This document shows, one piece after another, positions 42,193 to 57,393 of a stretch of DNA of 64,000 bases. The stretch comes from an uncultured Bacillota bacterium (GTDB lineage Bacteria > Sysuimicrobiota > Sysuimicrobiia > Sysuimicrobiales > Segetimicrobiaceae): contig CAWDRG010000009.1 in the NCBI GenBank assembly GCA_963804645.1, positions 648,314 to 712,313 on the forward strand. Direction: 5' to 3'. The notes under the pieces are model-generated. The model had not been told where the DNA came from. It saw only the letters and a list, made by a program, of their open reading frames with translations, and searched no databases. Both the position numbers and the translations under genes were made by a program. Each line of letters opens with the position of its first letter. The first letter of the stretch is position 1.

Positions 42193-43617
42193 CTACTTGT
42201 CCACCCGTCGCGTGTCGATCGCCACCTCGCAGGACAGGCCGACCTGCAGGAGCCGGCCGGGATCCGTGCCCTGAACCAGGGTGATCTTGACGGGGACCAA
42301 TTGGACGACCTTCACGAAGTTGCCGGTCGCGTTATCGGGCGGCAGGAGCGCGACGGACGACCCCGTCGCCGCGCCCAGGCTTTGGACGTGGCCCTGGAAG
42401 ACGCGGCCGCGAAACGCGTCCACGGTGATCCGCACCGGATTCCCGACCTGCACGTTGCTGAGCTGCGTCTCCTTGAGGTTCGCGACGACCCAGATGTCGT
42501 GGGCGATCGTCACCGACAACAGCGGCTCGTTCGGCTGCACGACCATCCCCAGCTCCGCCGTGCGGTTCGTGACCCATCCGTCGGCGGGCGCGCGGATCAG
42601 CGTCCGGTCGAGGTTGACTTGTGCCGTCGTGACCGCCTGCGCGGCCTGCGCGGCCTGCGCCTGGGCCTGGGCCAGCATCTGCGCCTTCTGCTGCACGAGC
42701 GTGTTGCCGGCCTCGGCCTGCGCCAGGGTGCCCCGCGCCTGCGCGATCTCCCCCTGATTCACCGTGATGTTCTGTTCCGCGATGGTGACCTGCTGGAGGT
42801 TGGCCTTCGCCGACACCAGCGCGGATTGGGCCTGCCGCAGGGCATCCTGAGCCGAGAGATACGCCGCCTGCGCGGTCTCGTACGCCGCGTTGTCGGCGTC
42901 GACCTGGGCCTGGGCAATCGCCCCCTCGGAGAGGAGCTGATGGTCGCGGGCGAGCGTCTTTTGCGCCGCATCGGCGTTCGCCTTGGTCGAGGCGATGTTG
43001 GCTTGCGCCGTGGTGACCTGTTCCTGCGCCTGGGAGACCGCGGCGGCCGTCTGCTGCCGTTCCATGTTCAGCTGTGCCTGGGCTTGGGGCAGCTTGGGCG
43101 TGGTCGCCTGGAGCGCGCCGCGCGCGACGCTCAGGCCGGTGCTGTACTCCTCTTGCTGCGCGTTCAGCGCCGCCTGCCCGGCATTGACCTGCGCCTGGGC
43201 GGCCGCGAGATTCGCCCGCGCGGACCCGAGCGCGAGACGGTAGTCCGTGGGATCGATCTGGACCAGGACCTGTCCCGCGCGCACCAGCTGGTTGTCGGTG
43301 ATGTCGAGCTTGACGATCGTGCCCGTGATCAGGGCCGCGACGGGCGCGACATCGCCGGTGGTCTGGGCGTTGTCGGTCTTCACGATCCCGAGGTTCGACC
43401 GCCAGTACGCGAACGCCGCCGCCAGGATGATCAGGACGACCAGGGCGGCCACCGGAAGCGCGAGACTCCGTCGGGACCTGCGGGTCGCAGGAGGCGTCTG
43501 CGGCTCGGGCGCCGGGATGTCACCATCCCGCCCCGAGCCGGTGGGGCGCGTTTTCTCAGCGTCGGCGGCAATCGTCGGGCCAGCCTTCACGTCGACTGCG
43601 CTAGGTGCGTCGTTCAT
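42193..43617 (-). CDS. HlyD-family membrane-fusion protein (EmrA-like)
   Basis: N-terminal TM anchor (LALPVAALVVLIILAAAF), a long Ala/Gln-rich coiled coil, and a C-terminal beta-barrel (...VKITLVQGTDPGRLLQVGLSCEVAIDTR). Confidence 0.85.
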   Translation of the reverse strand: MNDAPSAVDVKAGPTIAADAEKTRPTGSGRDGDIPAPEPQTPPATRRSRRSLALPVAALVVLIILAAAFAYWRSNLGIVKTDNAQTTGDVAPVAALITGTIVKLDITDNQLVRAGQVLVQIDPTDYRLALGSARANLAAAQAQVNAGQAALNAQQEEYSTGLSVARGALQATTPKLPQAQAQLNMERQQTAAAVSQAQEQVTTAQANIASTKANADAAQKTLARDHQLLSEGAIAQAQVDADNAAYETAQAAYLSAQDALRQAQSALVSAKANLQQVTIAEQNITVNQGEIAQARGTLAQAEAGNTLVQQKAQMLAQAQAQAAQAAQAVTTAQVNLDRTLIRAPADGWVTNRTAELGMVVQPNEPLLSVTIAHDIWVVANLKETQLSNVQVGNPVRITVDAFRGRVFQGHVQSLGAATGSSVALLPPDNATGNFVKVVQLVPVKITLVQGTDPGRLLQVGLSCEVAIDTRRVDK

Positions 43618-44141
43618 CGGGTCTCTCCCACTCCTTCGAGTGACGGTGCTCGGCCGGCCGCCTGCTCCTGCAATACCTGCTCGCGTATTCCCCGGAGCCG
43701 AACCAGCCGTTCCTGCAGTTCCTTGTGAAGCTTCGCCAGCCGCGCCGTGCGCTCGTCAACGATGCGCATCTGAGACTGTGCCAGCGCCATGGCCTGATCG
43801 AGCAGCCCGAGGCGCGTCGCCGGATCCGTGGCCTGCTGGTACGCCTCGCGGATTTCCGCGCGCACCGCGTCCGCGTGGAGCGTTTCCTTGATCTCAGCGA
43901 GTGAAATGCCGAGGAGCGACTGCAACTCCTTGATCCTCAGCAGCAGGGCGATCTCCGCCTCGGTGAAGAGGCGAAACCCGCCGGCGGTTCTCCCTGAGGG
44001 GGACAGCAGACCCACTTCTTCGTAGTAGCGAATCGCGCGCGGAGTCAAGCTCGTCCGGCGGACAACTTCTTCCATGCGGTAGTTCGCTTGGGGTCCGGTG
44101 GGATCTTGCTCCTCTGAGATGGGTGCCTGACCGTCCGTCAT
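43614..44141 (-). CDS. MerR-family transcriptional regulator
   Basis: MEEVVRRTSLTPRAIRYYEEVGLLSP is a MerR HTH, followed by a coiled-coil dimerisation helix. Overlaps the hlyD start (ATGA). Likely regulates the emrAB-like operon. Alternative start at 44075. Confidence 0.8.
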   Translation of the reverse strand: MTDGQAPISEEQDPTGPQANYRMEEVVRRTSLTPRAIRYYEEVGLLSPSGRTAGGFRLFTEAEIALLLRIKELQSLLGISLAEIKETLHADAVRAEIREAYQQATDPATRLGLLDQAMALAQSQMRIVDERTARLAKLHKELQERLVRLRGIREQVLQEQAAGRAPSLEGVGETR

Positions 44142-44632
44142 CCGCTCATTCTCCTACCCAAAGCTTAATCAAATAGCGCTTTAGGGATTATAACATACTC
44201 TTCCGTTAACGTGACATTGCCCAAATTACTTCCGTTGTTGCCGCCCGTTTTCGGGGCGCCGGGACCGTCGCCATCCCTTCCGTCACGTAAACGAGAGATT
44301 CTACTCCTGCTCGCCGCCTGCCTTGACTTGCCTAGAATGGTTCGACCTGCCCCCCGAGGCGGTGCTGCCTCGGAAGGCGCCTGGTGACGCGGGTCGAGGC
44401 CGGCACTCACGGGGTGATTCGTCCGTTGAAACTGGCATCGCTTCTTGCTATGCGCCGGCCGGAGCAATCCTGTTCCGGATGCCTATATGTATTCGTATTC
44501 GCCTTCGACGTATAATCGAACACCGGTTCGCGTGGCGAAGGCGGCCGTTGCGCATGCGCGCCTGCGGGTATAAGATTCTCGTTGCCGCCCAAGGCGGCAG
44601 CGCGTGGGGGGCATAGCTGGGGGGATCGCGTC

Positions 44633-45496
44633 GTGCGACCGTCTTGGAGGGGCTACGTCAGCTTCGGGCTCGTGACGATTCCCGTTAAACTGTACACGGC
44701 GACCGAACAGAAAGACGTTCGGTTCCGACTGCTGCACACCGTCTGTCATACGCCCATCAAGAATCAGCGCTTCTGTCCTCACTGCGACCGCGTGATCGAA
44801 TGGGCCGACGTCGTCCGCGGGTACGAGGCGAGCAAGGGTCGCTTCGTGCTCGTGACCGACGAGGAGCTGGAGCAGATTCCGATCGACACCAGCGGCAACG
44901 TGAATATCGCCGGGTTCGTCGAACTCCAGGACATCGACCCGATCTACTACGAGCGGTCCTACTACGTCGCGCCGGACGAGGGCGGAGCCAAGGCGTTTCT
45001 CCTGCTCGAGGAGGCGCTGCGCGAGGCGAACCGGGTGGCGATCGGCAAAGTGGTGATTCGGGAGAAAGAGCAGCTCGTGTCGCTTCGCCCGTATCAAAAG
45101 GCGATGGTGCTGAGCACGCTGTTCTATGCCGACGAGGTGCGGTCGCTGTCCGGTCTGGAAGAACTGCCGGTGGAGGCCACGGTGCATCCCAACGAGCGGA
45201 AGATGGCCGTGCAGCTCGTGGAGAATCTCGCGATGGAGTTCAATGTCGAGGAGTTCAAAGACGAGTACCGTGATGCCCTCATGGCGATGATCAGTGCGAA
45301 GGGTAAGGGCGAGGAAGTCGCCGGGCCGAAAGAGGCGCCCGCCCCGGGCAAGGTCGTCGACCTGATGGAGGCGCTCAAGCGAAGTGTCGAGATGGCGAAG
45401 GGCAGCCATCGGCGGCCGGCGGCCGACGGCAAGAGCGCCCGCGCCGCGGGCCAGCAGCGGCGGGCGGCGGGCGGCATGCACGAGCGTCCGCGATAG
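44633..45496 (+). CDS. ku: Ku protein (non-homologous end-joining DNA-end binding)
   Basis: WRGYVSFGLVTIPVKLYTATEQKDVRFRLLH is the canonical Ku beta-barrel N-terminus. The C-terminal tail is basic. GTG start, trimmed from the track start at 44582. No ligD gene in the window. Confidence 0.85.
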   Translation: MRPSWRGYVSFGLVTIPVKLYTATEQKDVRFRLLHTVCHTPIKNQRFCPHCDRVIEWADVVRGYEASKGRFVLVTDEELEQIPIDTSGNVNIAGFVELQDIDPIYYERSYYVAPDEGGAKAFLLLEEALREANRVAIGKVVIREKEQLVSLRPYQKAMVLSTLFYADEVRSLSGLEELPVEATVHPNERKMAVQLVENLAMEFNVEEFKDEYRDALMAMISAKGKGEEVAGPKEAPAPGKVVDLMEALKRSVEMAKGSHRRPAADGKSARAAGQQRRAAGGMHERPR

Positions 45497-45586: not shown

Positions 45587-47197
45587 TTACTTCCAGGTCG
45601 CGTAGATCGCGGCCCACTTCTCGTTTGGCGTCACGCTCACGCCCTGCAGATGGTTGGTCGCGACCATGTAGAAGTCCTGACTCCAGAGGAAGATCCACGG
45701 CGCGTCCTTCCAGATCATCTGCTGCGCTTCCTTATACATCGCCTCGCGCTTCGTTTGATCCGGGACCGTCTGGGCCTGCAGCAACAGGTTGTCGACGTCG
45801 GTGTCCTTGTAGAACGACGGCGCCAGCCCGGTGGGCGGCCACTGCCCCGAGTAGAACTGGCCGAACAGCTCGCCGTCGGCGTCCAGGTACTGCGTCGCCC
45901 ACCCGAGGATGAAGATCTGAAGCGGGCTCTGCGCCAGCGGAGTCACCATCCACTTCACGTACGTCGGCCAGTCGGAGGTCTGGACGTTCGCCTGGATCCC
46001 GACGTTGCTGAGCTGCGCCGCGACCGCCTGGGCGAACTGATAGTCCTGGATGTACCGCCCCGTGGGGGTCCGGAAGTCGAGCTGGAAGCCCTGGGGGTAG
46101 CCGGCCTCCGAGAGCAGCTTCTTCGCCAGCGTCGGGTTGAACGGCCACCCGCCCGCCTGCAGCTTGGTGTATCCAAACAGCGCCGGGGTCGTCGGCGACT
46201 CGAGCACGTGCGCGAGGCCGAACAGCACGCTGTGGATGATCGCATCCTTGTTGATCGCGTAGTTGAGGGCCTGGCGTACCCGGACGTCCTTCAGCGGTCC
46301 GTATTGGTTGTTGAGCCCGATGAAGACGTCGCGGTCGCTCGCTCCGGAGATCACCGTGAGCGTGTTGTCCTTGCGGAGCGTGGGAACGTCCGGGGCGGGC
46401 GGTTCGTATGCCATCTGGACGTCGCCCGCGCGCAGCATGGTCTCGCGCGTGCCGGCGTTCGGCACGACGCGGAAGATCACCGTGTCGAAATACGGCTTCT
46501 TCCCCCAATAGTTCGGGTTCTTGACGAGCGTGATGTGGTCGCCGTGCACCCACTCCTTGAACACGTAGGGACCCGTCCCGGCATCCGTCGGGCCGAGCAC
46601 GATCTTGTCGTTGCCGATCTTCTTGACCGCGGTCGGCGAGAGGATCATCCCCGGCCCCGCGGCCATCCGCTCGAGCAGCGTCGGACTGGTCTGCTTGAGG
46701 TGCAGCACCACCGTATACGGATCCGGGGTGTCGATCCGGGTGGCGTCGATGTCGGTGAAGTAATACCGGTTCGGATTGCGCACGCTGGTGTCGAGCCACC
46801 GCTGGACGTTGAACTTCACCGCGTCCGCGTTGAAGTCGGTGCCGTCCTGGAACTTGACGCCCTGCCGCAGTTTAAACGTGTAGGTCAGCCCGTCGGGGCT
46901 CACCGTCCACGACGTCGCGAGCTGCGGCGTGAGCTTCGTATACTGGGGCTGGCCCGGTTCCACGCCCGAGCGCTCGTCGTTCGGCCAGATGAGCGAGTCG
47001 AACATGTATTCCACCATGTTGGACACGGTGGTGGTCGTCTGCCCTTCGGGGTCGAGCGTGTCGGCGTCGATGCCGACGGCGATCGTCAGGGTGGTCGGCG
47101 CGGCGGCGAATCCTCCCCGGGGGATCACGAGGAGCACCACCGCCACGACGCAGGCCACCAGCAGCGCGACGACGGGACGTACGGCCGATCGGATCAT
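45587..47197 (-). CDS. ABC transporter substrate-binding protein, family 5 (DppA/OppA-like)
   Basis: Signal peptide MIRSAVRPVVALLVACVVAVVLLV, then TLTIAVGIDADTLDP and ...FNVQRWLDTSV.... 536 aa. Confidence 0.85.
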   Translation of the reverse strand: MIRSAVRPVVALLVACVVAVVLLVIPRGGFAAAPTTLTIAVGIDADTLDPEGQTTTTVSNMVEYMFDSLIWPNDERSGVEPGQPQYTKLTPQLATSWTVSPDGLTYTFKLRQGVKFQDGTDFNADAVKFNVQRWLDTSVRNPNRYYFTDIDATRIDTPDPYTVVLHLKQTSPTLLERMAAGPGMILSPTAVKKIGNDKIVLGPTDAGTGPYVFKEWVHGDHITLVKNPNYWGKKPYFDTVIFRVVPNAGTRETMLRAGDVQMAYEPPAPDVPTLRKDNTLTVISGASDRDVFIGLNNQYGPLKDVRVRQALNYAINKDAIIHSVLFGLAHVLESPTTPALFGYTKLQAGGWPFNPTLAKKLLSEAGYPQGFQLDFRTPTGRYIQDYQFAQAVAAQLSNVGIQANVQTSDWPTYVKWMVTPLAQSPLQIFILGWATQYLDADGELFGQFYSGQWPPTGLAPSFYKDTDVDNLLLQAQTVPDQTKREAMYKEAQQMIWKDAPWIFLWSQDFYMVATNHLQGVSVTPNEKWAAIYATWK

Positions 47198-47367
47198 GGC
47201 TCACATCCCTCCTTCTTGCGTATGAGGCTATGCGGCCGGAGCCGCCGATCTGGGCGCGGAGGGTCCCGCGCGACAGGGCTATCTACAGTACGCGCTGCCG
47301 GGGAGGAATTCCTTTGGACGAGGCTTGCGGACTAGGCAGACGACTGCCACCGAAGTAGAATATGCCC

Positions 47368-47460
47368 CGGAGGGGTGCGAGAGCTCGGCTGAATCGGGCG
47401 GTCTCGAAAACCGCTAGGCGGGCAACTGCCTCGGGGGTTCAAATCCCTCCCCCTCCGCCA
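47368..47460 (+). tRNA. tRNA-Ser (anticodon CGA), class II with long variable arm
   Basis: GGAGGGG/CCCCTCC 7-bp acceptor stem, D stem CGA/TCG, anticodon stem GCGGT/ACCGC with loop CU-CGA-AA, long variable arm, T arm GGGGG-TTCAAAT-CCCTC, discriminator G plus encoded CCA. Confidence 0.85.
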
Positions 47461-47654
47461 ACGACCCATGAGTGCCATGGGTCGGCGCACAGGCTTATCG
47501 TCCGAGCTGAAGCGCGTCCCGCTGGAGAAATTGCCGCCGTGTACTACATTGTACTGCGTTGTACCATGTACTTTAGACGACGGAAGAACCAACCCGTTTT
47601 ATTATCAGGTCCGCCGTGTTCGTCCAGCGGAGTGCGTCGATGACTTGATCCTGA

Positions 47655-48065
47655 CTACCGCGGTTGTACGTCGATCGGGGGCCCACTCACGTGCATCTGA
47701 TCGCGGATTCGGCCCGCAAACTCTGCCGCTCCGTAGCAGCGGAACTTGAACTCCGTGCCGTCGCGTAGCGCCACGGTCACGACGCGCGTGCCGATTCCGA
47801 AGCGATCAGTAACCGACGTAATGTCCGCCAGGGGTACGCGACGGCTCATATTGTCTTTGTGAACGAATCGGTTCATTGCATTCGGTCGGAAATCGAGACA
47901 ATCTGGCAAGAGATACATGGTGCCACCGACCCATAAGCCCCTATAGTTTGCCTTGAAAAATTTAAGAGCGATCTTTACTTCCGCGTCCATTGGAAATCCC
48001 AACTCAGCGGATTTGATGAGAGCGTTTACTATCTTTTTGGCAACAATGTTTGCTGGCTCCTCCAT
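47655..48065 (-). CDS. GRAM/PH-like domain protein (hypothetical), in AT-rich island
   Basis: MEEPANIVAKK... behind a strong GGAGGTGA RBS. The C-terminal RVPLADITSVTDRFGIGTRVVTVALRDGTEFKFRCYGAAEFAGRI matches the GRAM/bacterial-PH beta-sandwich pattern. Codon usage and local GC are clearly lower than the flanks. Confidence 0.5.
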   Translation of the reverse strand: MEEPANIVAKKIVNALIKSAELGFPMDAEVKIALKFFKANYRGLWVGGTMYLLPDCLDFRPNAMNRFVHKDNMSRRVPLADITSVTDRFGIGTRVVTVALRDGTEFKFRCYGAAEFAGRIRDQMHVSGPPIDVQPR

Positions 48066-48184
48066 GAATTGTTCACCTCCGTCATCTATGTTAGGCACAC
48101 CATGATTTGCAAGCAATAGGCGCGGTGGAGGACCGGCTCGCGCCCTTGACCATGGAACGTATGCTTGCCGTGATGAGCTGCCTC

Positions 48185-48212
48185 GCGGAGTTCACATCCT
48201 TCCCCTTCGCCA
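48185..48212 (+). repeat. degenerate direct repeat of the tRNA-Ser 3' end (T-arm plus acceptor), putative att remnant
   Basis: GCGGAGTTCACATCCTTCCCCTTCGCCA versus the tRNA 3' end GGGGGTTCAAATCCCTCCCCCTCCGCCA. Followed by the same CCCATG..CATGGG hairpin motif seen after the intact tRNA. Confidence 0.45.
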
Positions 48213-48288
48213 AGAACCCATGAAAGACATGGGTGCGCACGCAGCGCCTCTTGTCCGACTCCGATCGCTTCTCGCGCGAACACTCCGA

Positions 48289-48440
48289 CCATGGTAACCG
48301 CTTGTACTACTCCGTTTCGCTATGGCAGGCCGCCGCGCGGACTCGGACGGATGCCCATTTCGTGACGCGGACGTGATCTGGACCGGCATGGGGCGCGCGC
48401 CCGATATCCTGGTGGCTGTGGGGAGCGTATTCTTTGAATT
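48289..48440 (+). repeat. ~150-bp conserved repeat R, copy 1 (function unknown; element end, promoter or ncRNA)
   Basis: CCATGGTAACCGCTTGT...TATGGCAGGCCGCCGCGCGGACTCGGACGGATGCCC...GACGCGGACGTGATCTGGACCGGCATGGGGCGCGCGCCCGATATCCTGGTGGCTGTGGGGAGC is about 90% identical to 49792..49940. Ends just before the RBS of the DUF900-like gene. Confidence 0.5.
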
Positions 48441-48448
48441 GAGGAGAG

Positions 48449-49531
48449 ATGTCAAAACCTGCAGGGGGATGTGCCGTGTCGACTTACGTCACCGTCCCGA
48501 TCGACGAGAATGGCATCATTTCCGATTTATACCTCCCGTCAATTATCTCCGAGTCAACGCACGACCCGTTCCGATTTTCCGATGTGTTCGTCTACTCGCA
48601 CGGTTGGTGGACCAATGCCGCGCAGGCCATGACGGACTATAACCACTTCGTCGTGGATCTCACAAGATGTCTCCTGCAGATAGCTCCGGCGCCGCCGTCC
48701 GATCTCGCCCTCCCCCGGTCGTCATTTCCGATTGCGCTCCATTGGCCGTCTATGATTAGCGAGGACCCAGGTTCTCTTGCGAACGCTGCGGAACTCGCGA
48801 CCTTTTTCTCAATGGGGAAGCGCGCCGACGTTGTCGGCCAACATGGGGTATCATCGCTCGTGAGAATGCTCTACAACGACTGGAACCCGCCGACGTCGGA
48901 CATGAAGTTGCGCCTCAACTTGATCGGGCACAGCTTTGGCTGCCGTGTGGTATGTTCCGGGTTGGCCACGGCGCTCACGACGATTGCTCAGGAGCAGCGC
49001 CGACTTCCCCAGTCAATCCAGTTGAGAGTGGTACTGCTTGCGCCGGCCTTCAACAGCGATGAGCTCCAACATGACCAGGATTACGCTGCGCTCACCGAAC
49101 CGGAATTGGACCTGCGCATCCTGGCAACCCGTTCCGACGGGGACACATCGCTCTGCACGTGGTATCCGCGGGCCGAAGCGCTGAATTTCTTCGCAAAGGA
49201 GCCCGTGACGGCGTTGGGCGGCGCAGGTCCGAGCGCACAGACTCTTTCTGACTTTGCCTCAAGCGGTACCGGTATTTCGGTGGGCCCCGGGTTTACGTAT
49301 AAAGGGGTCGTCACGAACACCGAGCGCCTCGTCGTCGCAGATCTCAGCGCATTGCATGCCGCGAACCCCGATCATGTGACGAGCAAGTTCGCCGGCCATC
49401 ACTCCGACATTTACTACAACGAGATTTACGAGCTGATCGCGGGATTTCTGTTCACGCGTTATCCGTTGGGGGTCGCGCCGCCTCCGGAATCACGCACCCC
49501 TGTTTTAGAATCGCCGGTGACCGCTCGGTAA
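48449..49531 (+). CDS. alpha/beta-hydrolase-fold serine hydrolase, DUF900-like (putative esterase/lipase)
   Basis: VFVYSHGWWTN, IALHWPSM and the nucleophile elbow LIGHSFGCRV (GxSxG) follow the DUF900 order. The start may be the GTG at 48476. Sits in island 2 between tRNA-Ser fragment repeats. Confidence 0.65.
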   Translation: MSKPAGGCAVSTYVTVPIDENGIISDLYLPSIISESTHDPFRFSDVFVYSHGWWTNAAQAMTDYNHFVVDLTRCLLQIAPAPPSDLALPRSSFPIALHWPSMISEDPGSLANAAELATFFSMGKRADVVGQHGVSSLVRMLYNDWNPPTSDMKLRLNLIGHSFGCRVVCSGLATALTTIAQEQRRLPQSIQLRVVLLAPAFNSDELQHDQDYAALTEPELDLRILATRSDGDTSLCTWYPRAEALNFFAKEPVTALGGAGPSAQTLSDFASSGTGISVGPGFTYKGVVTNTERLVVADLSALHAANPDHVTSKFAGHHSDIYYNEIYELIAGFLFTRYPLGVAPPPESRTPVLESPVTAR

Positions 49532-49660
49532 GCGGGCGCGCCGACAAGCCCCGAGATGCTCGGCGAACGGGACGGCTCGAAGGTGTAAATTCAATCGCCG
49601 GGCCAGAATGTCGAGGACGTTCCGCGAGGTCAATCAAACTGGCACAGCTATGGCGGGCGC

Positions 49661-49715
49661 AAAACTGCTAGGAGGGTAACTGCCTCCGGGGGTTCAAATT
49701 CCTCCCCTTCCGCCA
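49661..49715 (+). repeat. direct repeat of the tRNA-Ser 3' portion (anticodon loop to CCA, 55 bp), putative att site
   Basis: AAAACTGCTAGGAGGGTAACTGCCTCCGGGGGTTCAAATTCCTCCCCTTCCGCCA versus the tRNA AAAACCGCTAGGCGGGCAACTGCCTCGGGGGTTCAAATCCCTCCCCCTCCGCCA. There is no matching 5' half, so it is not a tRNA gene. Confidence 0.7.
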
Positions 49716-49791
49716 ATGCCCCATCAACGACATGGGTCGGCACACAAGCGTGCCCGTTTGATTCGAACCGCGTCTTACCCGAGAACTGCGG

Positions 49792-49940
49792 CCATGGTAA
49801 CCGCTTGTCCTGCTTCGCTTCGTTATGGCAGGCCGCCGCGCGGACTCGGACGGATGCCCCACTTCCTGACGCGGACGTGATCTGGAACGGCATGGGGCGC
49901 GCGCCTGATACCCTGGCGGCTGTGGGGAGCTATTATTTAA
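49792..49940 (+). repeat. ~150-bp conserved repeat R, copy 2
   Basis: See copy 1. Same position relative to the tRNA fragment: about 75 bp downstream of the CCA. Confidence 0.5.
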
Positions 49941-50221
49941 CTTTTGCACGAAATCGATCAGTAGGTGAAAGGTACAGCCGCGGGACGAGAGCCGGAAAAC
50001 GTCGAGGGGCGCATCGCAGTAGGCTTTGGGGAGGTGAACCTACAATGGGCGAGCCGGGTGGAAGCTCAGGGGCACCTGATTACGTGATCCGGCCGCCTGC
50101 TGCATTTCGGCCGGAATGTCCATCAAACTATTGGTGCGACGGAACCGTTAGATCTAACGCCTGCTGCGGGTAGTGGACTGCTCCTCTCGGTCGGTGCCCG
50201 CAGGGTGTGGGTCCGGGGAAT

Positions 50222-50659
50222 ATGTTCCTCTCGATCGGTGCCCTGCTTGTTTTGAGTGCGGGCATTGGGCTCGCCCTCTCGATTCTCATTGCGGTGATCT
50301 TCCGCAAGTATGCGACGCCTGAGCATGCCGTCGCTGACAGCTTCAGTGAGTTTCACACACGCCTGAGCCAGCTGCAAGGTCAGTTCTCGAGCGATTGCGC
50401 CAATCCGGTGGTGCCAAGCGGTGGCTCAGCCGACGCGGCCCGGAGAGAGGTAGGCGAACACCTGCATAGCATCAACAAAGAGCTTCGTCGGAACGGGCTG
50501 CCGTGGGTAAGGGGGACAGGCTATATTAGCCTCTGGGAACGCCTGCACCGTGCCGAAGAAGCCCTCATCGAATTTCAGCCTTCGGGGGCGGTCGTCGCGG
50601 GGGCGATCCTGACGCGCAGCGGCTTCGCGGTTCAAAAATTCCACGCTGCGAAGACGTGA
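50222..50659 (+). CDS. hypothetical membrane-anchored protein
   Basis: MFLSIGALLVLSAGIGLALSILIAVIF forms an N-terminal TM helix followed by a soluble domain. No family recognised. Lies in the degraded island. Confidence 0.3.
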   Translation: MFLSIGALLVLSAGIGLALSILIAVIFRKYATPEHAVADSFSEFHTRLSQLQGQFSSDCANPVVPSGGSADAARREVGEHLHSINKELRRNGLPWVRGTGYISLWERLHRAEEALIEFQPSGAVVAGAILTRSGFAVQKFHAAKT

Positions 50660-50779
50660 TCAAGCAACTGGGGCAGGCTGTCGAGGCCATTGATCCGTCC
50701 GCTCGGAAATACCTTTTTGATCCTCCCACAGCGGCTCTGCCACTAGTCATCAAGAGCCAGCGCAGGCTGGACGACGCAA

Positions 50780-51446
50780 TTGTCGGTGTCACGTGGTTTA
50801 GAAGCTCTCGCGGCGAGCGGGGGCACGCCCCCGTACCATTGGACGTCCGACGACGCGACGCTGCCGCAGTGGGCAATGCTGAGCGATACGGGCGTGGTGG
50901 GCGGCACGCCGCCACGGCAGACGGTGGGGCCATGCGGATTTACTGCTCGCGTGACGGATAGCGCCAGCGTGACGGCCACCAAAGATTTTGCTCTAACTGT
51001 CCGCGAGCTGGAGAATGCGACGCTGCTCGATGCGACGTTGGAAGGGCGTACAAGGGAGTCGGGAATCAGCAAGCGGCGTCCGCATACACGAGTGGTCTGA
51101 TCAAAACTCCTTGCAAGGCGGAGTGGGACTTGCGCGAGAGGGCGTGCTGACCGGCGCGCCGGCGACTGCCGGGATGCTTCGCGTTTCGGCGCGGGTCGAA
51201 AGCGAAGGGCAAGAGATCACCGAAGATGTCACATTAGTTGTGAAGACTCCAGCGGATCGGATTGGTGACAGTGACGCAGATCGAGGCACATTGGCGCGGG
51301 GTGTGTTGCGCACTGTTCGCCTCGTCATCGATGAGTTCGCGACCAAAACTGGAACGCGATCGTGCTCGCCCGCAATCGCCTCGCGGAACTCATGTTTCTC
51401 ACGGGACTGCTTGGGTACGCGTTACTCGCGATTGCCATCGGGGTGA
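50780..51446 (+). pseudogene. fragments of a cell-surface protein with putative-Ig (He_PIG / dystroglycan-type cadherin-like) repeats, in two different frames
   Basis: Frame 1 (50780..51100): GGTPPYHWTSDDATLPQWAMLSDTGVVGGTPPRQTVGPCGFTARVTDSASVTATKDFALTV. Frame 2 (51015..51446): LPxG-like ...GVLTGAPATAGMLRVSARVESEGQEITEDVTLVV. Two consecutive repeats of the same domain type in different frames indicate frameshifting. Confidence 0.4.
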
Positions 51447-52478
51447 AGGCGCAACGGAACTCGAAATTGGCTGCTGCAGCGGTTTTCTATCTGGCTGGTG
51501 CGACAACGGGGCTGCTCAGCCGACTGTACAGTGAGTCCCAAGGATAACGCGGTCGTCGGGAGCATTGATCGGACTATGGTCTTGTGCCGATGCGGGTCTG
51601 ACATGCTGGTAGTGTCCGGTTTGGCGGCAATTTTCGGTGTGGTGTTGGTGGCGATGCTGCCGCAAGCTGTGAGTGCGTTCACGAGCGCGGTTGGGGCGGT
51701 GGTAACGCGACCCAGCATGCCGTCGTTGGCAGATATTCTCGATCTCGAAGGGCACCTCGCTTACATCATTGTGGCGGCGGTTTTTGGCCTGACTCCAGGC
51801 TGTTCTTTAACCGGCTCAGGGCCTGGCCGACACTTTTCAAGAAGGATTTGAAATCCACCAGCGCCCATCAGAACGAGGCGTCGATGCGGCAGGGGCGTCG
51901 GTGTGGGGCGCCAGGGTTCAACGGCGGCCCTTCACCATCGCGGAATAGATTACGCGTTGATCCTTTCCGAGTGTAGGATGTGATTATATCGTTCAGTATG
52001 CCCCCCCACATAATATGGGATTTTGAATGCTCTGCCAAAAAAAGGATAGTTTTGAATTTTTCCGTCGAAGAAATGTTCGATCACCAAGCGGTAAGCGCTC
52101 GGTGCCTACCGCCATGTGCCGACGGTCCACACTGACACCCGCCGGACTGCGGCGGATGACGGTACTCGCTGCGCGGCTGTGCTTCCGGATCGAGGGAACG
52201 GGGGGCAGTCAAATGCGGCGTGGCTGGATGCTGACGGTGCTGATCCTCGGTTGCGTGTAAGGTGTCGACGGCACCATCGCTGGCTGAAATCACCGGCATG
52301 CTCCGCCTGATTAAAGCGTCCACGTTGGCGGATACTTTGGAAGAACAGGGATTTGATGGTCTGAAGATGAAGCCGCAGCGCGGCGGCGCTGCCATCTCGC
52401 GGCGAGGACAGGTGCAGCGTCGCAAGCGGGCGGCAGACAGTTGACGACGTAGTCAATGCAACCCTCCGCGAGGGGGGC

Positions 52479-53268
52479 GTGGAAATGGGGACGCGGCTGC
52501 AAGGGAAGGTGGCCCTTATCACCCGGGCATCTCAGGGAATGGGACGCACCGCGGCGATCTGTTCGCGAAGAAGGGGCGCGTGTCGCGATCGTCGACGTGG
52601 ACGAGGCGCAGGGCGTCGAGGTCGCCGGCATCATCACCTCCGCCGGCGGGGAGGCGCTGTTGGTCCGCGCGGACGTCAGCGACGCCGGGCAGGCCCGCGC
52701 GGCCGCCGATGCGACCGTCGCCCGGTTCGGCCGCCTCGACGTGCTCTTCAACAACGCGGCCGTCCGCGCGAACGGCGCGCTCCACGAAATGTCCGAGGAA
52801 GACTGGGATCGCGTCGTCGCCGTCAACCTCCGAGGCGTGTTCCTAATGTCCAAGTTCGCCATCCCGTATATGATGAAGCAGGGAGGCGGCTCGATCATCA
52901 ACATGTCGTCGGCTGTAGCGTTCGTCGCCATGGAGCGGCGGGCGGCGTATATTGCGACGAAAGGCGCCGTGCTGGCGCTCACGCGCGCGATGGCGACGGA
53001 CTACGCGGACCACCACATCCCCGTGAACGCGTTGTGCCCCGGGACCGTGGCGACACCGCGTCTGGTCGCGTCCCTCCGGCCGCCGGGCGCCGGGGCGCAG
53101 GCAACATACTGCCGGTCATCTACACGTCAGGGGACGCTGGCCCGGCCGGATGAACTTGAGGCCGCGGCGCTGTTTCTGGCTTCCGACGACTCCAGCTTCA
53201 TGACGGGCGCCCCGCTGAACGTCGACGGCGGGTTCATCGCTGGCCGGCGGGCGTGGCCGGCCCAATGA
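52479..53268 (+). pseudogene. SDR-family oxidoreductase disrupted by two 1-nt deletions
   Basis: N-terminus MEMGTRLQGKVALITRASQGMGRTAAI is in frame 52479. The rest (EEGARVAIVDVD...NNAA...YIATKGAV...LASDDSSFMTGAPLNVDGG) is in frame 52456. The intervening 15 nt read LFAK in the third frame, implying two single-base deletions within GCGGCGATCTGTTCGCGAAGAAGGGG. Confidence 0.6.
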
Positions 53269-53638
53269 CCCGCAGACCACCGCGCCGCACCCACGGCGCG
53301 GTCGGGAAAGAGGCGTGAGAGCTGTGGCAACGGTGATCGAGGCTCCGGCGCAGGCACCTACCGCATCGCTGGCCCGGTTCATCGCCGGCCTCGGGGACAG
53401 CCGCTGCACGCATATCGATGAGGCCGCGTGCTGGGCGCCGTCCCCGAAAGCTCGCGGCCAGGAAGCCTGGGCGAGCTCGTCCCTGCGGAAGGCGCGGACG
53501 ACGGATTCGAGCGGTGTGACGCCGCTCTTGAAGAGTCCGCCTCCTCCTAGAGGCCCTTCGCTCCTCCGGCATCAGGTTATGCCGTCACGTGCGGCTTACC
53601 GTCCACTACCTCCCACTACCCGTCTGTTACAAGACGCT

Positions 53639-54275
53639 CTAGCCGTTCCAGCGTGAGGTCGCACAAGAATTAACAACCAGCGTCGCGGAGGAGAAATCAT
53701 TGGTCCGTGTGTGCGCGGTTGGAACGGCGACCACTGGCATTCCAGCATCTCGGGCAGCTAGCACGCCTTTTTCCGCGTCCTCCAGCACCACACATCTGGC
53801 AGGCTCCGCCCCGAGATGTTGAACGGTATGAAGAAACACATCGGGATAGGGTTTGGCGCGCGGGACACTTTCTCTGGTCGCAATCACGTCAAACACACTT
53901 GCAGCACCGATCTTGCGAAGCACGGGGTCGACATCCACCCGAAACGCAGACGTGGCCAGCGCGAGGCGCACGTGTGACCGCAGGGCGTCAATCAGTTCGA
54001 GCGCACACGGCATCGGTTGCAGTTCGGCCTCCAGCAGCGTCGAATAGTAAATCAGCTTGCGTCCTCTCAGCACCTCTGGGTCGCGTCGGACGCCACGGGC
54101 GCGTAGGTAACTCGATGCCACCGGCGCTCGGATCGACAACGCATATCATCAACCGAGCGGCATGCCAATTTCTGCGAGCGTGTCTAGCCAAGACCGGTAA
54201 CGCAGGCCTTCCGTGTCAACGAGAAGTCCGTCAAGGTCGAAAATAACGGCCTGCAGCGCTGCCGCGGATGGCATG
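53639..54275 (-). pseudogene. HAD-superfamily hydrolase (subfamily IA) interrupted by two consecutive in-frame TGA codons
   Basis: Minus strand: MPSAAALQAVIFDLDGLLVDTEGLRYRSWLDTLAEIGMPLG-TGA-TGA-YALSIRAPVASSYL...KPYPDVFLHTVQHLGAEPARCVVLEDAEKGVLAARDAGMPVVAV. The HAD motif I DxD (FDLDG) and motifs III/IV are in the same frame, separated only by TGATGA. Confidence 0.55.
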
Positions 54276-54279
54276 ATCG

Positions 54280-55021
54280 TTAGCGGTACCCGCCGTAGAT
54301 CGCGTGTCCGGCATACATCCAGAAACAGTCAACGATCTGGAATCCGACTTCGCGTAGCCAGTCCAACTGGTCGACGAGGCGAGACGGCTGATCCACCGGA
54401 TCCGGCACATCCAGCCGGTAGTGGTTCCAGCGATCATCTCCAAACCCATCGCGCGCGCGCGCATCGCCGAACCTGCGCAGGCTCCGCTCTTGGACCGCCT
54501 CGTCCCACTGCGAAGCAAAGAGACGCGCCACATGAGGCGTCGCCGCCTCGACGAGATCAGCGACGAGGAGCGCGCCCCCGGGCTCCAAGCGCGCGGCCAA
54601 ATCCGCGAACAGACGCCGTTTCTCAGGCCCAGGGATATGGTGAATCGCAAGCGAGGAGATCACACACCGCAACGATACCGGAAGAGTGGCCCGCCAATCG
54701 TCGGTACTGTGAGCAACATCTGCGTGCTGCACACGTCGCCGAAGATCCGAGCAACCGCCGCTCTCGCTCCAGCATCACGTCGGAACCGTCGAACGCGAGC
54801 ACCTGGCACCGGGGAAATCGCTCGAGCATCTCCTTAGCAAACGTCCCATCGCCCGCAGCGAGCTCGACGATCGTGAACGTTTCGTCAGCGTCAGCCGGGA
54901 TCAGGTCGAGAAGAACGCGCCGCTGCTCTTCGCGTGCAGGAACGTACCCGTCGCCGATCTCGGCGAATCGCTCAGAGTCGGCTTCAGTCCAGCGCGACGG
55001 ATCGCCGGGATTGCGTAACAT
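54280..55021 (-). pseudogene. class I SAM-dependent methyltransferase split by a frameshift
   Basis: N-terminal part (MLRNPGDPSRWTE...ETFTIVELAAGDGTFAKEMLERFPRCQVLAFDGSDVMLERERRLLG) is in frame 54623..55345. The C-terminal part (...VISSLAIHHIPGPEKRRLFADLAARLEPGGALLVADLV...) is in frame 54280..54732. They overlap about 110 nt. Confidence 0.55.
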
Positions 55022-55365
55022 GATCTCGGCAAAATTCGCGATTGTCAGTGATTGCTCCCGCTCTACCAACGGTAGAGGGTGCCACACAAGTGTTTGCTGA
55101 AATGATACATGCCGTTCGCTGAACGTTCGCTGGCGTGCCCAGAGAACGGGACGCCATGAAAGGAGGTGGGTTTTCGGAACGAGGCGATCTCGTGCAAGCT
55201 CGTGTTCGCCTACCGGTGGAAGTCCGGTCCGGGTAAGCGCCAGGGCGCCCGGTAGCAGGCTCCTGGTGCGAGGTGGAAACGCCTGGCACTGAAGCGGAGC
55301 GTCGAAGGCCTGAAGTCGAGGAAGCGACCGCTCAGCCCGTAACATGACGTGAATCCTGCCGCCTC

Positions 55366-56174
55366 GTGAAGTTAACCCCGCAAGGGGACCAGAGGGAGCC
55401 GAGTCGGGTAGTTCGCGACGAAGGCCATGGAAAGCGTGAAGCGCTTGGAGATGCAGCGCTGAAGGACCCTCCGGGGTATGGGGAGCGGGATGAGCGGAAG
55501 GTGGACACGGGAACTGGGGACACCCGCCCCCCGGGTGACGGACCGTTTCCGGCCGTTGTACTTCTCCCCGGCTGTGACGGGAGCTTCGACACGATCAACG
55601 AACACTACTTGGCGCTCTTTCAGCAACAAGGGTACGTCGTACTCGCGCTTGATGTGCACGGGTCGAGACACGTCTGCCCAAACTTGTCGGCGCTTCCTTC
55701 CTTTACCGTAGCGAAAGACGCGATCGGCGCGCACGTCTATCTGCGTTCGCTCCCCTATGTTGACGCGAACCGTATCGCGGTCGTGGGATGGAGCCTGGGA
55801 GGCGAAGCCGCCTCGTCCGCGGGCAACAAGGGATCGATCGTCGGCGCGCTCACTGAGTGGTGCCGGCTGCCTTCGCGTTCTATCCGGATTGCGAGTATCT
55901 TCTGCATTACGCGAAAGATGCTCGCGTCCCCACGCTCATCCTGATTGGGCAGGCGGACGACTGGGATTCGCCTAGCGAGTGCCAGGACGCCGCGCAGGCC
56001 TCGCAGCAGAACGGGCAGCCGGTCACGATCCAGACGTTCCCCGGAGCGCCTCACGCGTTCGACGTGGCTCCGAAACCGATTGTGTATCTGGGGCACAAGG
56101 AGGCGTACGATGCGGCGGCAGCAGCAGTGGCCCAGAGCGCGCTGCTGAGTTTTCTCGGGGACAATTTCAAATAG
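55366..56174 (+). pseudogene. dienelactone-hydrolase-family alpha/beta hydrolase split by a frameshift
   Basis: PAVVLLPGCDG...GYVVLALD...IAVVGWSLGGEAAS (nucleophile elbow) is in frame 55366..55944. The remainder (AAFAFYPDCEY...VPTLILIGQADDWDSP...FPGAPHAFD) is in frame 55857..56174. Confidence 0.55.
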
Positions 56175-56212
56175 CACGGCTATTTCACCACCCAGGTCCT
56201 AGCGGCGGCGGT

Positions 56213-56258
56213 GGGGCCGGCAACTGCCCCGGGGGTTCAAATCCATCACCCTCCGCCA
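56213..56258 (+). repeat. direct repeat of the tRNA-Ser 3' portion (variable arm to CCA, 46 bp), distal att remnant
   Basis: GGCCGGCAACTGCCCCGGGGGTTCAAATCCATCACCCTCCGCCA versus the tRNA GGCGGGCAACTGCCTCGGGGGTTCAAATCCCTCCCCCTCCGCCA. Confidence 0.7.
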
Positions 56259-57054
56259 ATGATCCAGGAACCACGTGGGCTGCGCACGCCGTGTCCGACT
56301 CGAACCGCACCCCAGAATATTAGCCGCCGTGTGATCTCGGGTGAGAATGCAGTGGCTGGCTTCTTTGGGGGGTGTTCGTCGTGCACCGATTCGAACTACA
56401 GGTTCTGCGGCGCCCAACGCGCAATGACGTCGCGGACCTGGACGATCAGATTGCGGCGTTCAACTGCGACGCAACCAACGCCCCGGGACGACCTGGAACT
56501 CGGCATCTTCGTCCGCGGCGGCGATGGCAGCCTCAATGTCGACGGCGAACCTACTTCGTGAAAATCGCGTTCCCATCAACGACCGTCACGAGCCGCCACC
56601 CCTGGGCGCTGAGTGCATTGAGATTGGATGCTGCGGCTGCGCACCTGGATGCGGCGAAATTTAATTGAGCGTTCACGTTGCTCGCCCGGCCCTGGGTGCG
56701 GAGGCTGCTTGGACACCCGTGATTTGACCCAGGGTGAACACGGTGTATTGAATGGACGTCGCGGCGTACGAGGCCGAGTGAGGCGTTCCGATGAGGAACC
56801 CAGCCCGAAGACGGCAAGAACAAATCCTAACAGTGTGCTCCGCACCAAATCACCCCCGGCCTCTGGACGGCACTCGCTTCGGACGGCTCTGGGCGCCCCT
56901 CGCTCGTGCCGTTTCGTCGGGACGATGTTGTTGAGGCCTTACATTGTGGGCGCAACTCTTAATCGTAATAATTGAGTCCACGCGCAGGGACCGGCTGCAG
57001 ACACCGCAAATAAGCGGTTGAAACGAACACACAATGTGCAAAGAGGTGTGGATC

Positions 57055-57393
57055 ATGCGATTTCTTGTGACCGCGGAATACGTCGAAGTGGGCGCGTTGC
57101 TGCCGCCGGAGGCGATCGGCCCGCTGGCGCAGCACGTTATTCTCCCGAGTCTCGAAATGTTGGCGAAGTGGGAGCAGGACGGCAAGATCCGTGGCGGCGT
57201 GCATGCCGGAGAGCGATCCGGCGCCTTCATTGTCGACGCCGCGTCCAACGAGGAAGTTGGAACGCTCCTCGCGAGCCTGCCATTTTGGGGGCTGGTGAAG
57301 TGGGACGTGACCCCGCTGCAGTCCTGGGCGTCCACCGTCGAGCGAGACCGAGGCGCCTTTCAAAGGGCCGCGTCCGGCGTCCCCAAGCGCTGA
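57055..57393 (+). CDS. muconolactone Delta-isomerase-family (MIase-like) small protein
   Basis: MRFLVTAEYVEVGALLPPEAIGPLAQHVILPSLEMLAKWEQDGKIRGGVHAGERSGAFIVDAASNEEVGTLLASLPFWGLVKWDVTPL aligns with the about 96-aa MIase pattern (MLF.V.M.V..P....., W...G......FDV.S..EL...L..LPL.P). AAGAGGTG RBS. Confidence 0.6.
   Translation: MRFLVTAEYVEVGALLPPEAIGPLAQHVILPSLEMLAKWEQDGKIRGGVHAGERSGAFIVDAASNEEVGTLLASLPFWGLVKWDVTPLQSWASTVERDRGAFQRAASGVPKR

Follow-up and report, generated by a model that had tools for sequence, protein, structure and literature searches.

An intact tRNA-Ser gene with the anticodon CGA (47369..47460, + strand, identified with ARAGORN), preceded by an SBP_bac_5 gene, anchors an array of three co-oriented tRNA-Ser 3′ fragments that begin at 48178, 49652 and 56215 and also lie on the + strand. 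The array belongs to the 64-kb window, by which the whole stretch of DNA analysed here is meant, and its tRNA repeats bound three islets, E1 to E3. These are foreign in composition, as the host has a GC content of ~72% and the region from 47.4 to 58 kb one of 58-66% with genes of low GC3. The host lineage is uncultured, comes from soil and is poorly studied; relatives carry the label 'Bacillati bacterium ANGP1'.

The full tRNA is followed by a trailer block and the arm of islet E1 (47461..47575, + strand), delimited from the sequence, the junction alignment and motif positions. This segment contains a short hairpin, GACCCATG..CATGGGTC, then a GTCCGA..CGC motif, and in the E1 arm TGTAC recurs at 47540, 47550, 47560 and 47567 with 10-bp phasing. 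The sole gene of the 0.7-kb E1 (47655..48065, - strand) encodes 136 aa with no family match, and its low GC3 of 0.59 (a value from the longer ORF 47655-48116) makes it look foreign. Fragment 1 (48178..48212, + strand) is a degenerate T-arm and acceptor 3′ strand, and leads into a trailer block (48213..48312, + strand) that ends in CCATGGTAACCGCTTGTACTAC and is homologous to all other junction trailers. Core copy 1 (48313..48428, + strand), a non-coding, imperfect rod hairpin of ~116 nt, comes next, and the repeat closes with the T-rich tail GTATTCTTTGAA (48429..48440, + strand) directly 5′ of the ribosome-binding site of a DUF900-like alpha/beta hydrolase gene (48449..49531, + strand; Pfam PF05990, E = 1e-4, and homologues). 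This gene is the only one in the 1.4-kb E2 and lies between the two repeat copies.

Fragment 2 (49652..49715, + strand) extends from the anticodon stem to the CCA and is followed by a trailer block ending in CCATGGTAACCGCTTGTCCTGC (49716..49815, + strand), core copy 2 with the same rod hairpin (49816..49931, + strand), and the T-rich tail TATTATTTAACTTT (49932..49945, + strand), where the repeat ends according to sequence and alignment. Islet E3 (49946..56214, + strand), at ~6.4 kb, holds small ORFs, an SDR, a HAD hydrolase, a truncated methyltransferase, a dienelactone-hydrolase-like gene and a group II intron RNA fragment (55210-55347; cmscan, Rfam), and no integrase. The distal end of the array is formed by fragment 3 and its trailer (56215..56308, + strand), without a core. 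No integrase or recombinase was detected in the island or elsewhere in the window among GC3-supported ORFs searched with Pfam, the HxLRH / LGH..Y recombinase motif pair is absent from all six frames of the window, and the E1 protein and first E3 ORFs have no match in Pfam, PHROGs, NCBIfam or PADLOC.

All junctions, including that at the full tRNA of a sister genome (L004), consist of a tRNA 3′ half and a trailer of ~95 nt ending in ..TGGTAACC.CTTG, and past TGGTAACC they diverge into islet-specific sequence. The ~116-nt core is present only at the two junctions that precede the DUF900-like gene and the 6.4-kb E3; the full tRNA and fragment 3 have the tRNA part and the ~95-nt trailer in common and lack it. 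The first-pass annotation had described two tRNA-Ser fragments with the repeat, and these two do carry the core; the array also has the third fragment and the full tRNA. Both window copies of the repeat accompany a tRNA-Ser junction, but not every tRNA-Ser junction has the core. E2 and E3 show no relationship in their right-hand (P-arm side) sequences, and the point within the tRNA at which a fragment starts differs between fragments.

Extent, conservation and coding potential of the repeat

The repeat is real. Segments 48289-48440 and 49792-49940, put at about 90% identity in the first-pass annotation, are 88.9% identical (136/153 alignment columns), contain the strings quoted for both and both start with CCATGGTAACCGCTTGT. 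They form the right-hand part of a ~260-bp direct repeat that begins inside each tRNA-Ser 3′ fragment (self-BLAST, 48178-48435 versus 49680-49938; 81% identity over 261 columns, E = 2.5e-62) and is present twice in the 64-kb window by self-BLAST and nhmmer. The distance of about 75 bp first given between each tRNA fragment and the segment is 76 nt at both copies, counted from CCA-equivalent ends at 48212 (fragment 1) and 49715 (fragment 2). The offset is identical because the ~260-bp repeat begins inside the fragments; the repeat is not a separate element, as homology is unbroken from inside each fragment. Identity along the repeat is very uneven, at 69% over the tRNA fragment and trailer versus 93.5% over the core (48321-48426 / 49824-49930). 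The placement of both repeat ends just before the first gene of the next island holds for copy 1, which stops 8 nt from the ATG of the DUF900-like gene, but not for copy 2, which ends farther away, ~100 nt upstream of a small ORF and ~265 nt upstream of the gene at 50207. A simple tandem duplication including flanking genes is rejected, as the flanking genes are unduplicated and those after the two copies are unrelated.

The repeat is non-coding and conserved at the DNA level, as originally proposed. Owing to a 1-nt indel near 48357, no frame stays in register from one copy to the other, and the remaining core substitutions are non-synonymous or stop-creating in all frames. ORFs overlapping the repeat gave no Pfam match even at E <= 10 and no PHROG match at E <= 0.01, and an 87-aa minus-strand ORF compared with 5.8 billion proteins yielded no candidate and no sequence with words in common. 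The repeat is not part of a longer gene.

Searches by exact pattern, blastn and nhmmer place the repeat sequence in one species-level lineage only. The core 24-mer GCCGCGCGGACTCGGACGGATGCC has no exact match in 185,579 species genomes, JGI metagenomes and IMG/VR, and the core 19-mer GACGCGGACGTGATCTGGA retrieved nothing related, its one viral match being a chance occurrence inside a coding gene. Junction patterns have no match in viral contigs, and a 268-bp repeat query has none in plasmids or phages (blastn, distant setting). An nhmmer profile of the core recovered known copies only, in the window and 165 loci (~2.5 Mb fetched).

Fold of the core

Each core copy folds from end to end into a single rod hairpin, after which comes a T-rich tail. 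Copy 1 forms 36 long-range pairs, a number reached by 3% of shuffles, and copy 2 forms 38, reached by 0/400 shuffles, with an RNAalifold consensus of 35 pairs. The folding energy, whether for an RNA or a DNA structure, does not beat that of shuffles (MFE z-scores -0.45 to +1.8). The core ends, as read from the sequence, carry an imperfect ~11-nt terminal inverted repeat, GGCAGGCCGCC / GGCGGC-TG.

All five stem substitutions between copy 1 and copy 2 place C or U opposite G, which is compatible with pairing on the + strand only. Across four sequences the stem changes comprise one compensatory pair and four wobble-only changes, and one stem pair runs G-C, G-U, A-U. The covariation check on the core alignment is not significant, with 246/500 shuffles reaching the observed score in an alignment of four sequences from which the consensus structure was itself derived. 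A cmscan of 46000-58000 against Rfam 15 at E <= 1 gave no match in the repeat; it returned tRNA, the group II intron fragment and one weak sub-threshold match on the tRNA minus strand. The small structured RNA suggested at first may or may not be present here: the unusual rod fold and the wobble-compatible + strand changes speak for it, the lack of an Rfam family, the ordinary folding energy and the non-significant covariation do not.

Origin of the junctions

The junctions are polymorphic among strains. A sister-strain contig (L001) is 99.7% identical to the window until ~49790 and then continues as another lineage with a one-gene islet. It lacks 49821 to ~49926, the core, with both flanks kept (..CGCTT joined to AGCTA..TAACTTTTGCACG), and its tail is accurate sequence, being 96% identical, ungapped, to an independent assembly. 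In another strain (L002), a 96% identical DUF900-like gene has different flanks, which switch relative to the window within ~7 nt of its ribosome-binding site and stop codon, and unrelated upstream sequence. Downstream of the L002 gene, a short tRNA fragment leads straight into host flank (FMN reductase, cupin), and E3 is therefore absent there. A diverged third repeat copy upstream of the L002 gene was considered and rejected, as its alignment score falls below the shuffle mean. In L004, a 97%-identical sister MAG, a different islet adjoins the tRNA and TGGTAACCTC occurs twice at the trailer boundary. Copy 2 of a further locus (L003) is a mosaic, copy-1-like on the left and copy-2-like on the right with a switch at ~49812, and the copy-specific core differences are common to the window and L003. 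Breakpoints between strains cluster at ~49790-49821, and four independent ones are within ~30 nt of the trailer boundary. In related species (SBP 67-82% identical) the same tRNA adjoins the same gene, the downstream genes are ordinary and differ, and genome and metagenome loci reached via the adjacent SBP gene contain no tRNA fragments and no repeat at the tRNA-Ser locus. These empty sites make the locus an insertion hot spot specific to this lineage and rule out the repeat as ancestral host flank.

The 150-bp segments are probably the element-side arms of two att-like junctions among small integrase-less islets that lie in tandem behind tRNA-Ser(CGA), a reading held with moderate confidence. 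An integrative-element arm is the best fit among the three roles first proposed, since the segments adjoin a shared att-like block, lie in a low-GC array and coincide with strain breakpoints, but no integrase is present. In each insertion, a circular DNA carrying a tRNA 3′ half and the ~95-nt trailer would recombine at the tRNA locus, regenerating the tRNA and displacing the earlier 3′ half and trailer downstream as a fragment, so that each fragment would be followed by the left end of an older islet, the next in line. E2 and E3 would then have homologous left ends, which would account for the two occurrences of the 150 bp at one offset of 76 nt. Equivalently, the ~260-bp direct repeat may be viewed as bracketing the DUF900-like gene, as after a Campbell-type insertion into a resident copy. 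At the ..CCATGGTAACCGCTTGT.. boundary the junction types stop matching and the strain exchanges fall, and it is the likely recombinase-binding and crossover region. Integrase binding at the arm is putative, and the phased TGTAC motifs (47540, 47550, 47560) and the paired TGGTAACCTC, which lie at this boundary in other arms, look like candidate protein-binding sites. The recombination may have been site-specific and performed by a recombinase whose gene lies elsewhere or has been lost. The core behind the boundary, with its T-rich tail, belongs to the same arm, and the best guess is that in the + strand transcript it would act as a terminator, an insulator or a stabilising stem where transcription reads through from the tRNA or from the islet before it.

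Several findings count against the arm reading. No recombinase is found in the window and no intact related element with an integrase in any fetched relative, and site-specific recombination is therefore unproven. The unrelated right ends of E2 and E3 and the differing tRNA start points are unexpected from one attP, and E1 and E2 are very small. A core at 93.5% beside a block at 69% is not predicted by a single duplication, so that later block shuffling or constraint on the core is required. Finally, the core behaves in L001 as a discrete presence/absence indel, which is unpredicted for a plain arm.

A neutral origin is rather unlikely, and would have the ~260-bp repeat made once by Campbell-type insertion or unequal crossing-over with no site-specific recombinase, leaving core and hairpin functionless and the core conserved only as the most recently duplicated or gene-converted part. 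The two copies exactly bracket the DUF900-like gene, the mosaic junctions indicate that they recombine with each other, and the absence of an integrase, the unexceptional folding energy, the non-significant covariation and the confinement to one species-level lineage all fit such a relic. However, the copy-specific core differences found in both the window and L003 mean that the copies are older than the strain split and have not been homogenised, and the core is still at 93.5% while the adjoining block is down to 69%. In addition, three more junction types with the same block and different right sides, together with the phased motifs, point to a recurrent site-directed process, and the rod topology is rare among shuffles.

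The core of 106-116 nt could also be a small palindromic non-autonomous element (MITE, ERIC or Correia-like) inserted in the att flank and then copied along with it, which is quite unlikely. The clean presence/absence in L001 with both flanks kept supports this, the missing piece coincides with the hairpin, and the core has inverted-repeat ends, a hairpin body and a size typical of MITEs. On the other hand, replication slippage can also delete long hairpins precisely and explains L001 equally well. Only two copies were found, in the same context and with shared flank of ~30 nt on the left and ~15 nt on the right, and cannot therefore count as separate insertions. Target-site duplications are not seen, and dispersed copies with such duplications were found neither in the window and the ~2.5 Mb of fetched loci (nhmmer) nor in public collections (24-mer and 19-mer).

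A slimmer chance is given to the core as a cis-acting + strand RNA, in the form of a 5′ UTR stem, processing site or attenuator controlling the downstream cargo genes. Both copies point the same way as the tRNA and the + strand genes that follow, copy 1 stops just short of the ribosome-binding site of the DUF900-like gene, and the 35-pair consensus rod, with stem substitutions compatible on the + strand only, is followed by a T-rich tail in the manner of an attenuator or terminator. The stem is atypically long for an intrinsic terminator, and a terminator consensus scan flagged only copy 2, weakly (49911-49927 and AGCTATTATT). Against a controlling RNA stand the missing Rfam family at E <= 1, the z-scores and the shuffle-matched covariation score given above. 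An outward-facing promoter, also proposed initially, finds no support, as no promoter was detected upstream and copy 1 leaves no promoter room before the DUF900-like gene. As to the proposed leader role, the L002 gene has unrelated sequence upstream, and the repeat is therefore not an obligatory leader of that gene; the core is also absent from the homologous E3 start in L001.

An equally doubtful proposition is that the locus is a tRNA-anchored, somewhat integron-like cassette array, in which single genes or short gene sets would be swapped as units between strains by a recombinase acting in trans with crossover at ..CCATGGTAACCGCTTG... The composite site would comprise the tRNA-Ser-like block and the rod hairpin, with crossover ~95 nt 3′ of the tRNA and not inside it, and the 116-nt hairpin would serve as a folded recognition or insulation element at the left end of each cassette. 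Hints in this direction are the breakpoints near the boundary, the 96% identical DUF900-like gene with switched flanks, the two single-gene islets and the phased motifs. Last, a decayed protein-coding remnant, such as the terminal part of an integrase formerly next to the att site, is highly improbable and essentially refuted. Both copies are spanned by long minus-strand open frames (of 87 aa and 93 aa), as GC-rich DNA usually has; the offset frames, non-synonymous substitutions, lack of Pfam, PHROG or database protein matches and missing tyrosine-recombinase motifs all speak against it.

Comparison with known systems

The array resembles island arrays in that co-oriented tRNA 3′ repeats bound islets whose content is foreign and strain-variable, and departs from them in having no island-encoded site-specific recombinase. 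E1, E2 and E3 agree with CIMEs in being bounded by tRNA repeats and lacking recombination and conjugation genes, and no helper element for CIME mobilisation was found in the window or the fetched loci. The ssrA islands of Dehalococcoides lie in tandem between direct repeats of the 3′ end of ssrA, with extra nucleotide conservation around the repeats, and 15/31 of these islands lack an integration module and are proposed to be cis-mobilizable, moving with their neighbours by accretion (PMC3146451). The ICESt1-related elements (Pavlovic et al. 2004, cited in PMC3146451) are an example of accretion and CIMEs. As in the Dehalococcoides CIME arrays, the present locus has tandem islands behind one small RNA gene, each with its 3′-end repeat, conservation beside the repeats, islands without an integration module and strain-variable content. 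Unlike those arrays, no recombinase is found in any array member, in the window or in fetched relatives. Furthermore, the junction here is not a 20-bp repeat but a tRNA half with ~95 nt and in two cases ~130 nt more, two islets, of 0.7-1.4 kb, consist of one gene each, and mobility is putative. In the tycheposon islands of Prochlorococcus, successive integrations move older elements inward and leave partial tRNAs and remnants (10.1101/2020.12.28.424599), and the locus shares with tycheposons (Hackl et al.) the single tRNA target, the partial tRNAs and degenerate remnants and the small metabolic cargo sets. Tycheposons are defined by tyrosine recombinase and replication modules, neither of which is present here, and they differ in host phylum and show no sequence similarity.

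The P and P′ arms of attP sites of lambda or P4-type tyrosine integrases are 100-200 bp of non-coding DNA beside the core identity segment. The present locus is like them in this, in the short phased repeats at the boundary (three TGTAC with a 10-bp period and two TGGTAACCTC) and in conservation among related elements, and unlike them in that neither a cognate integrase nor an excisionase was identified and arm binding is putative. To our knowledge, attP arms have not been described with a 116-nt rod hairpin. The core also recalls ERIC, Correia/NEMIS and REPIN sequences as a non-coding, strain-variable imperfect palindrome of ~110 nt just upstream of genes, but it has two copies in one shared context, with no target-site duplication and no dispersed copies. 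Integron attC sites are imperfect hairpins of 57-141 nt that bound arrayed, promoterless single-gene cassettes. The likeness lies in an imperfect hairpin at the boundary of promoterless single-gene units in an array; the hairpin here precedes the gene, however, and the junctions contain tRNA fragments. An attC site proper is rejected, as the hairpin ends GTTATGG/GCTATGG misfit GTTRRRY, no GTTRRRY / RYYYAAC or R′′/R′ core sites are present, and there is no IntI, intI or attI.

Taken together, the best reading is that the repeat is what recurrent insertion at a tRNA hot spot ordinarily leaves behind, and the locus is of a known kind, another tRNA landing pad where small foreign gene sets accumulate and decay. 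For annotation, a 'conserved non-coding repeat' of this type is to be read as a junction scar and not as a new RNA gene. If the junctions are active, their length, the integrase-less single-gene islets and the tight breakpoints could indicate cassette exchange by a recombinase in trans, and the hairpin core would represent a new type of signal for recombination or insulation.

Islets downstream of the tRNA-Ser(CGA) gene

The one tRNA called by ARAGORN, a tRNA-Ser(CGA) at 47369-47460, is followed by 3′ fragments of the same tRNA at 48178, 49652 and 56215, all in the orientation of the full copy. Host DNA has a GC content of ~72%, which drops to 58-66% from the tRNA to ~58 kb, a region whose genes also have low GC3. 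The fragments split this low-GC region into three islets: E1 (47461-48177), with a single minus-strand gene of 136 aa; E2 (48259-49651), with one DUF900-like hydrolase gene; and E3 (to 56214), with small ORFs, an SDR, a HAD hydrolase, a truncated methyltransferase, a group II intron RNA fragment and a dienelactone-hydrolase-like gene. Neither these islets nor the rest of the 64-kb window showed an integrase domain or a recombinase motif.

The E1 gene (47655-48065, minus strand) has a strong RBS and a GC content markedly below that of the host, and its protein matches nothing in Pfam, PHROGs, NCBIfam or PADLOC. Within E3, between the truncated methyltransferase and dienelactone-hydrolase-like genes, the plus-strand segment 55210-55347 matches Rfam RF02003 at full length (group II intron domains D1-D4 type 4; 90.9 bits, E = 2e-19); as no reverse-transcriptase ORF is seen nearby, it appears to be either part of an intron or an intron that has no ORF. 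The start of the gene at 50207 is spanned by a 21-nt direct repeat (50179-50199 and 50223-50243; TGCTCCTCTCGGTCGGTGCCC and TGTTCCTCTCGATCGGTGCCC, 90% identical, 44 nt apart). Just upstream of the SBP_bac_5 (SBP) gene that adjoins the tRNA, 43614-45496 holds a Ku (NHEJ) gene and, on the minus strand, a gene for a MerR-family regulator; Ku also adjoins the SBP gene in a sister MAG, L004.

Extent of the repeat and anatomy of the junctions

The ~150-bp repeat described by the first-pass annotation behind two of the tRNA fragments is real, with 136 of 153 aligned columns alike (88.9% identity) between 48289-48440 and 49792-49940, the same opening 17-mer in both segments and the quoted strings present in each. 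Its left edge did not hold, as similarity begins ~110 nt further left, within the tRNA fragments: self-BLAST of the region returns a sole alignment, 48178-48435 against 49680-49938 (81% over 261 columns, E = 2.5e-62), a likeness far beyond chance. The tRNA CCA-equivalents end at 48212 and 49715, and the proposed fixed offset is indeed 76 nt in both copies, but it does not mark a separate element; the offsets are equal because tRNA fragment and repeat form one continuous repeat. Identity between the copies is 69% across the tRNA fragment plus trailer (the ~95 nt past the tRNA), rises to 93.5% in the core (48321-48426 versus 49824-49930) and falls sharply beyond a short T-rich tail.

Ten junctions were aligned: the window supplied four, and contigs of related strains (L001-L004) the other six. 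These four contigs were the informative ones obtained through exact-protein look-ups. Nine junctions carry the 3′ half of the tRNA, a short hairpin (GACCCATG..CATGGGTC) and a GTCCGAnTCGAACCGC motif, and in these the common stretch stops at ..(C/G)(A/G)TGGTAACC(G)CTTG, ~95 nt past the tRNA; the tenth, a short L002 fragment, retains nothing of the tRNA but its very 3′ end. Past this end point every junction runs into its own islet sequence, and only those before E2 and E3 remain alike, through the 116-nt core (48313-48428 and 49816-49931) and the T-rich tail, so the annotated repeat starts exactly where the att-like block ends. Behind the full tRNA, just past its att-like block, TGTAC recurs every 10 bp exactly, at 47540, 47550 and 47560, with a further copy at 47567; these plus-strand repeats (47540-47572) look like phased protein-binding (arm-type) sites, putatively of E1. 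At the equivalent boundary in L004, TGGTAACCTC occurs twice, 11 bp apart. A neutral relic of one homologous insertion would account for the bracketing of the DUF900-like gene, but it is an unlikely origin for the repeat, since it leaves unexplained both the recurrent junction types and the contrast between 93.5% and 69% identity.

Strain polymorphism and the nature of the core

L003, a 10.8-kb contig with 94.7% identity to window 48218-58856, carries both copies. Its copy 2 is a mosaic, like window copy 1 in its left part and like window copy 2 in its right part, with a switch at ~49812; copy-specific differences common to the two strains indicate that both copies existed before the strains diverged and that no homogenisation is under way. 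From 47462 to ~49790, L001 matches the window at 99.7% identity; there it switches to a different lineage, which lacks 49821 to ~49926 while keeping the sequence that flanks the core on both sides, the missing piece coinciding with the predicted hairpin rod of the core. Past this site a single isochorismatase gene replaces E3, and the L001 tail is not assembly noise, as an independent Illumina contig matches it without gaps at 96% identity. The DUF900-like gene of L002 is 96% identical to that of the window, the 72 nt upstream of it are unrelated, and downstream a short tRNA fragment abuts the host flank directly, so L002 is without E3. In L004, whose host genes are 97% identical, a different islet adjoins the full tRNA and homology to copy 2 ends at ~49807. 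Relatives whose adjacent SBP gene is 67-82% identical still have tRNA-Ser(CGA) beside it, followed by ordinary genes that differ among themselves, with no trace of tRNA fragments or repeat at these loci. Together, these comparisons show that the array is lineage-specific and variable exactly at the junctions, and that the repeat was no part of the ancestral host flank.

Flanks of the DUF900-like gene (window 48442-49538, L002 73-1168) become unrelated within ~7 nt of the RBS and ~7 nt past the stop codon, an abrupt change by which the gene behaves as a precisely bounded cassette; a tRNA-Ser 3′ fragment lies ~120-130 nt downstream in both strains. Downstream of copy 2, a small plus-strand ORF with a good RBS (50046-50170) has an L003 counterpart (1849-1974) encoding a 41-aa hydrophobic peptide (MGETWWQTFRGTVIATWIATAVLLPIIAASITIMLSCWRNR); start and end are the same, and the middle is swapped for unrelated sequence in the window. 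Nine colinear patches (42-206 nt, 71-98% identical) link window 49938-58858 (8.9 kb) to L001 2366-3774 (1.4 kb) and could reflect a mosaic or nested-insertion history of E3. One of them, 42 nt at 54697-54738 in the window's methyltransferase region, has 98% identity to part of the isochorismatase gene that is intact in L001.

The clean L001 indel would suit a MITE-like palindrome, a small non-autonomous mobile element, yet this identity is improbable for the core, as just two copies turned up, both in one context, and neither shows a target-site duplication. The repeat occurs only twice in the 64-kb window. An exact 24-mer of the core found nothing in 185,579 species genomes, JGI metagenomes and IMG/VR, an exact 19-mer gave one chance match in IMG/VR, inside a coding gene, blastn of the repeat against plasmids and phages found nothing, and an nhmmer core profile found no new copy in the window, the one part of the source genome covered, or in ~2.5 Mb of fetched loci.

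The predicted fold of the core is unusual in topology, a single imperfect end-to-end rod of 36-38 long-range pairs that arises in 3% and 0% of 400 shuffles for the two copies, and RNAalifold places 35 pairs across four sequences. Folding energy, as RNA or DNA, is no better than that of dinucleotide shuffles. All five stem substitutions between the copies are C/U opposite G on the plus strand, and one pair varies across sequences as G-C, G-U and A-U; such pairing-compatible changes are a hint, not evidence, as with only four sequences 246 of 500 control shuffles attain as much covariation. Orientation and wobble-compatible changes agree with a cis-regulatory RNA, which is nevertheless a doubtful candidate, as the statistics do not back it and two homologous contexts manage without the core. 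The core has no Rfam match, and the suggested promoter was not borne out, no promoter-like site being found there. Its non-coding character was confirmed: a 1-nt indel shifts all frames between copies, and the other substitutions are non-synonymous or stop-making in every frame. Overlapping ORFs match nothing in Pfam even at E <= 10 or in PHROGs at E <= 0.01, and a search of 5.8 billion proteins gave no relative; with its frames broken and such relatives missing, a pseudogene remnant is essentially excluded.

Proposed accretion at the tRNA gene

Tandem accretion at a tRNA hot spot is the simplest account of position, orientation, composition and strain polymorphism. Each arriving DNA would have borne its own version of the 3′ half of the tRNA together with the trailer and recombined with the resident tRNA locus, displacing the older copy downstream; the recombinase responsible would be encoded elsewhere or have since been lost. 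The sequence right of each tRNA fragment would then be the left arm of the next islet, and because the left arms of E2 and E3 are homologous, the 150-bp repeat is met with twice, each time at one and the same distance. Put another way, a ~260-bp direct repeat brackets the DUF900-like gene. Of the three identities first offered for the repeat, an arm of an integrative-element family is the best, rather than a promoter or leader or a small structured RNA. A tRNA-anchored cassette-exchange system with its crossover at the GGTAACC boundary has only a slim chance of being correct. Judged solely by orientation and shape, the rod and its T-rich tail may serve as a terminator, insulator or stabiliser for plus-strand read-through RNA.

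The proposed accretion matches the behaviour of two known island types. Dehalococcoides ssrA islands lie in tandem between repeats of the 3′ end of ssrA, with additional conserved sequence beside these repeats; 15 of 31 have no integration module, and the authors of that study suggest that these may be cis-mobilizable elements moved by accretion (PMC3146451). Tycheposon islands of Prochlorococcus record successive integrations, with partial tRNAs and remnants (10.1101/2020.12.28.424599). With a rod-hairpin core acting as an indel as its one unexplained detail, the locus is of a known kind, tandem, integrase-less islets at a tRNA gene.
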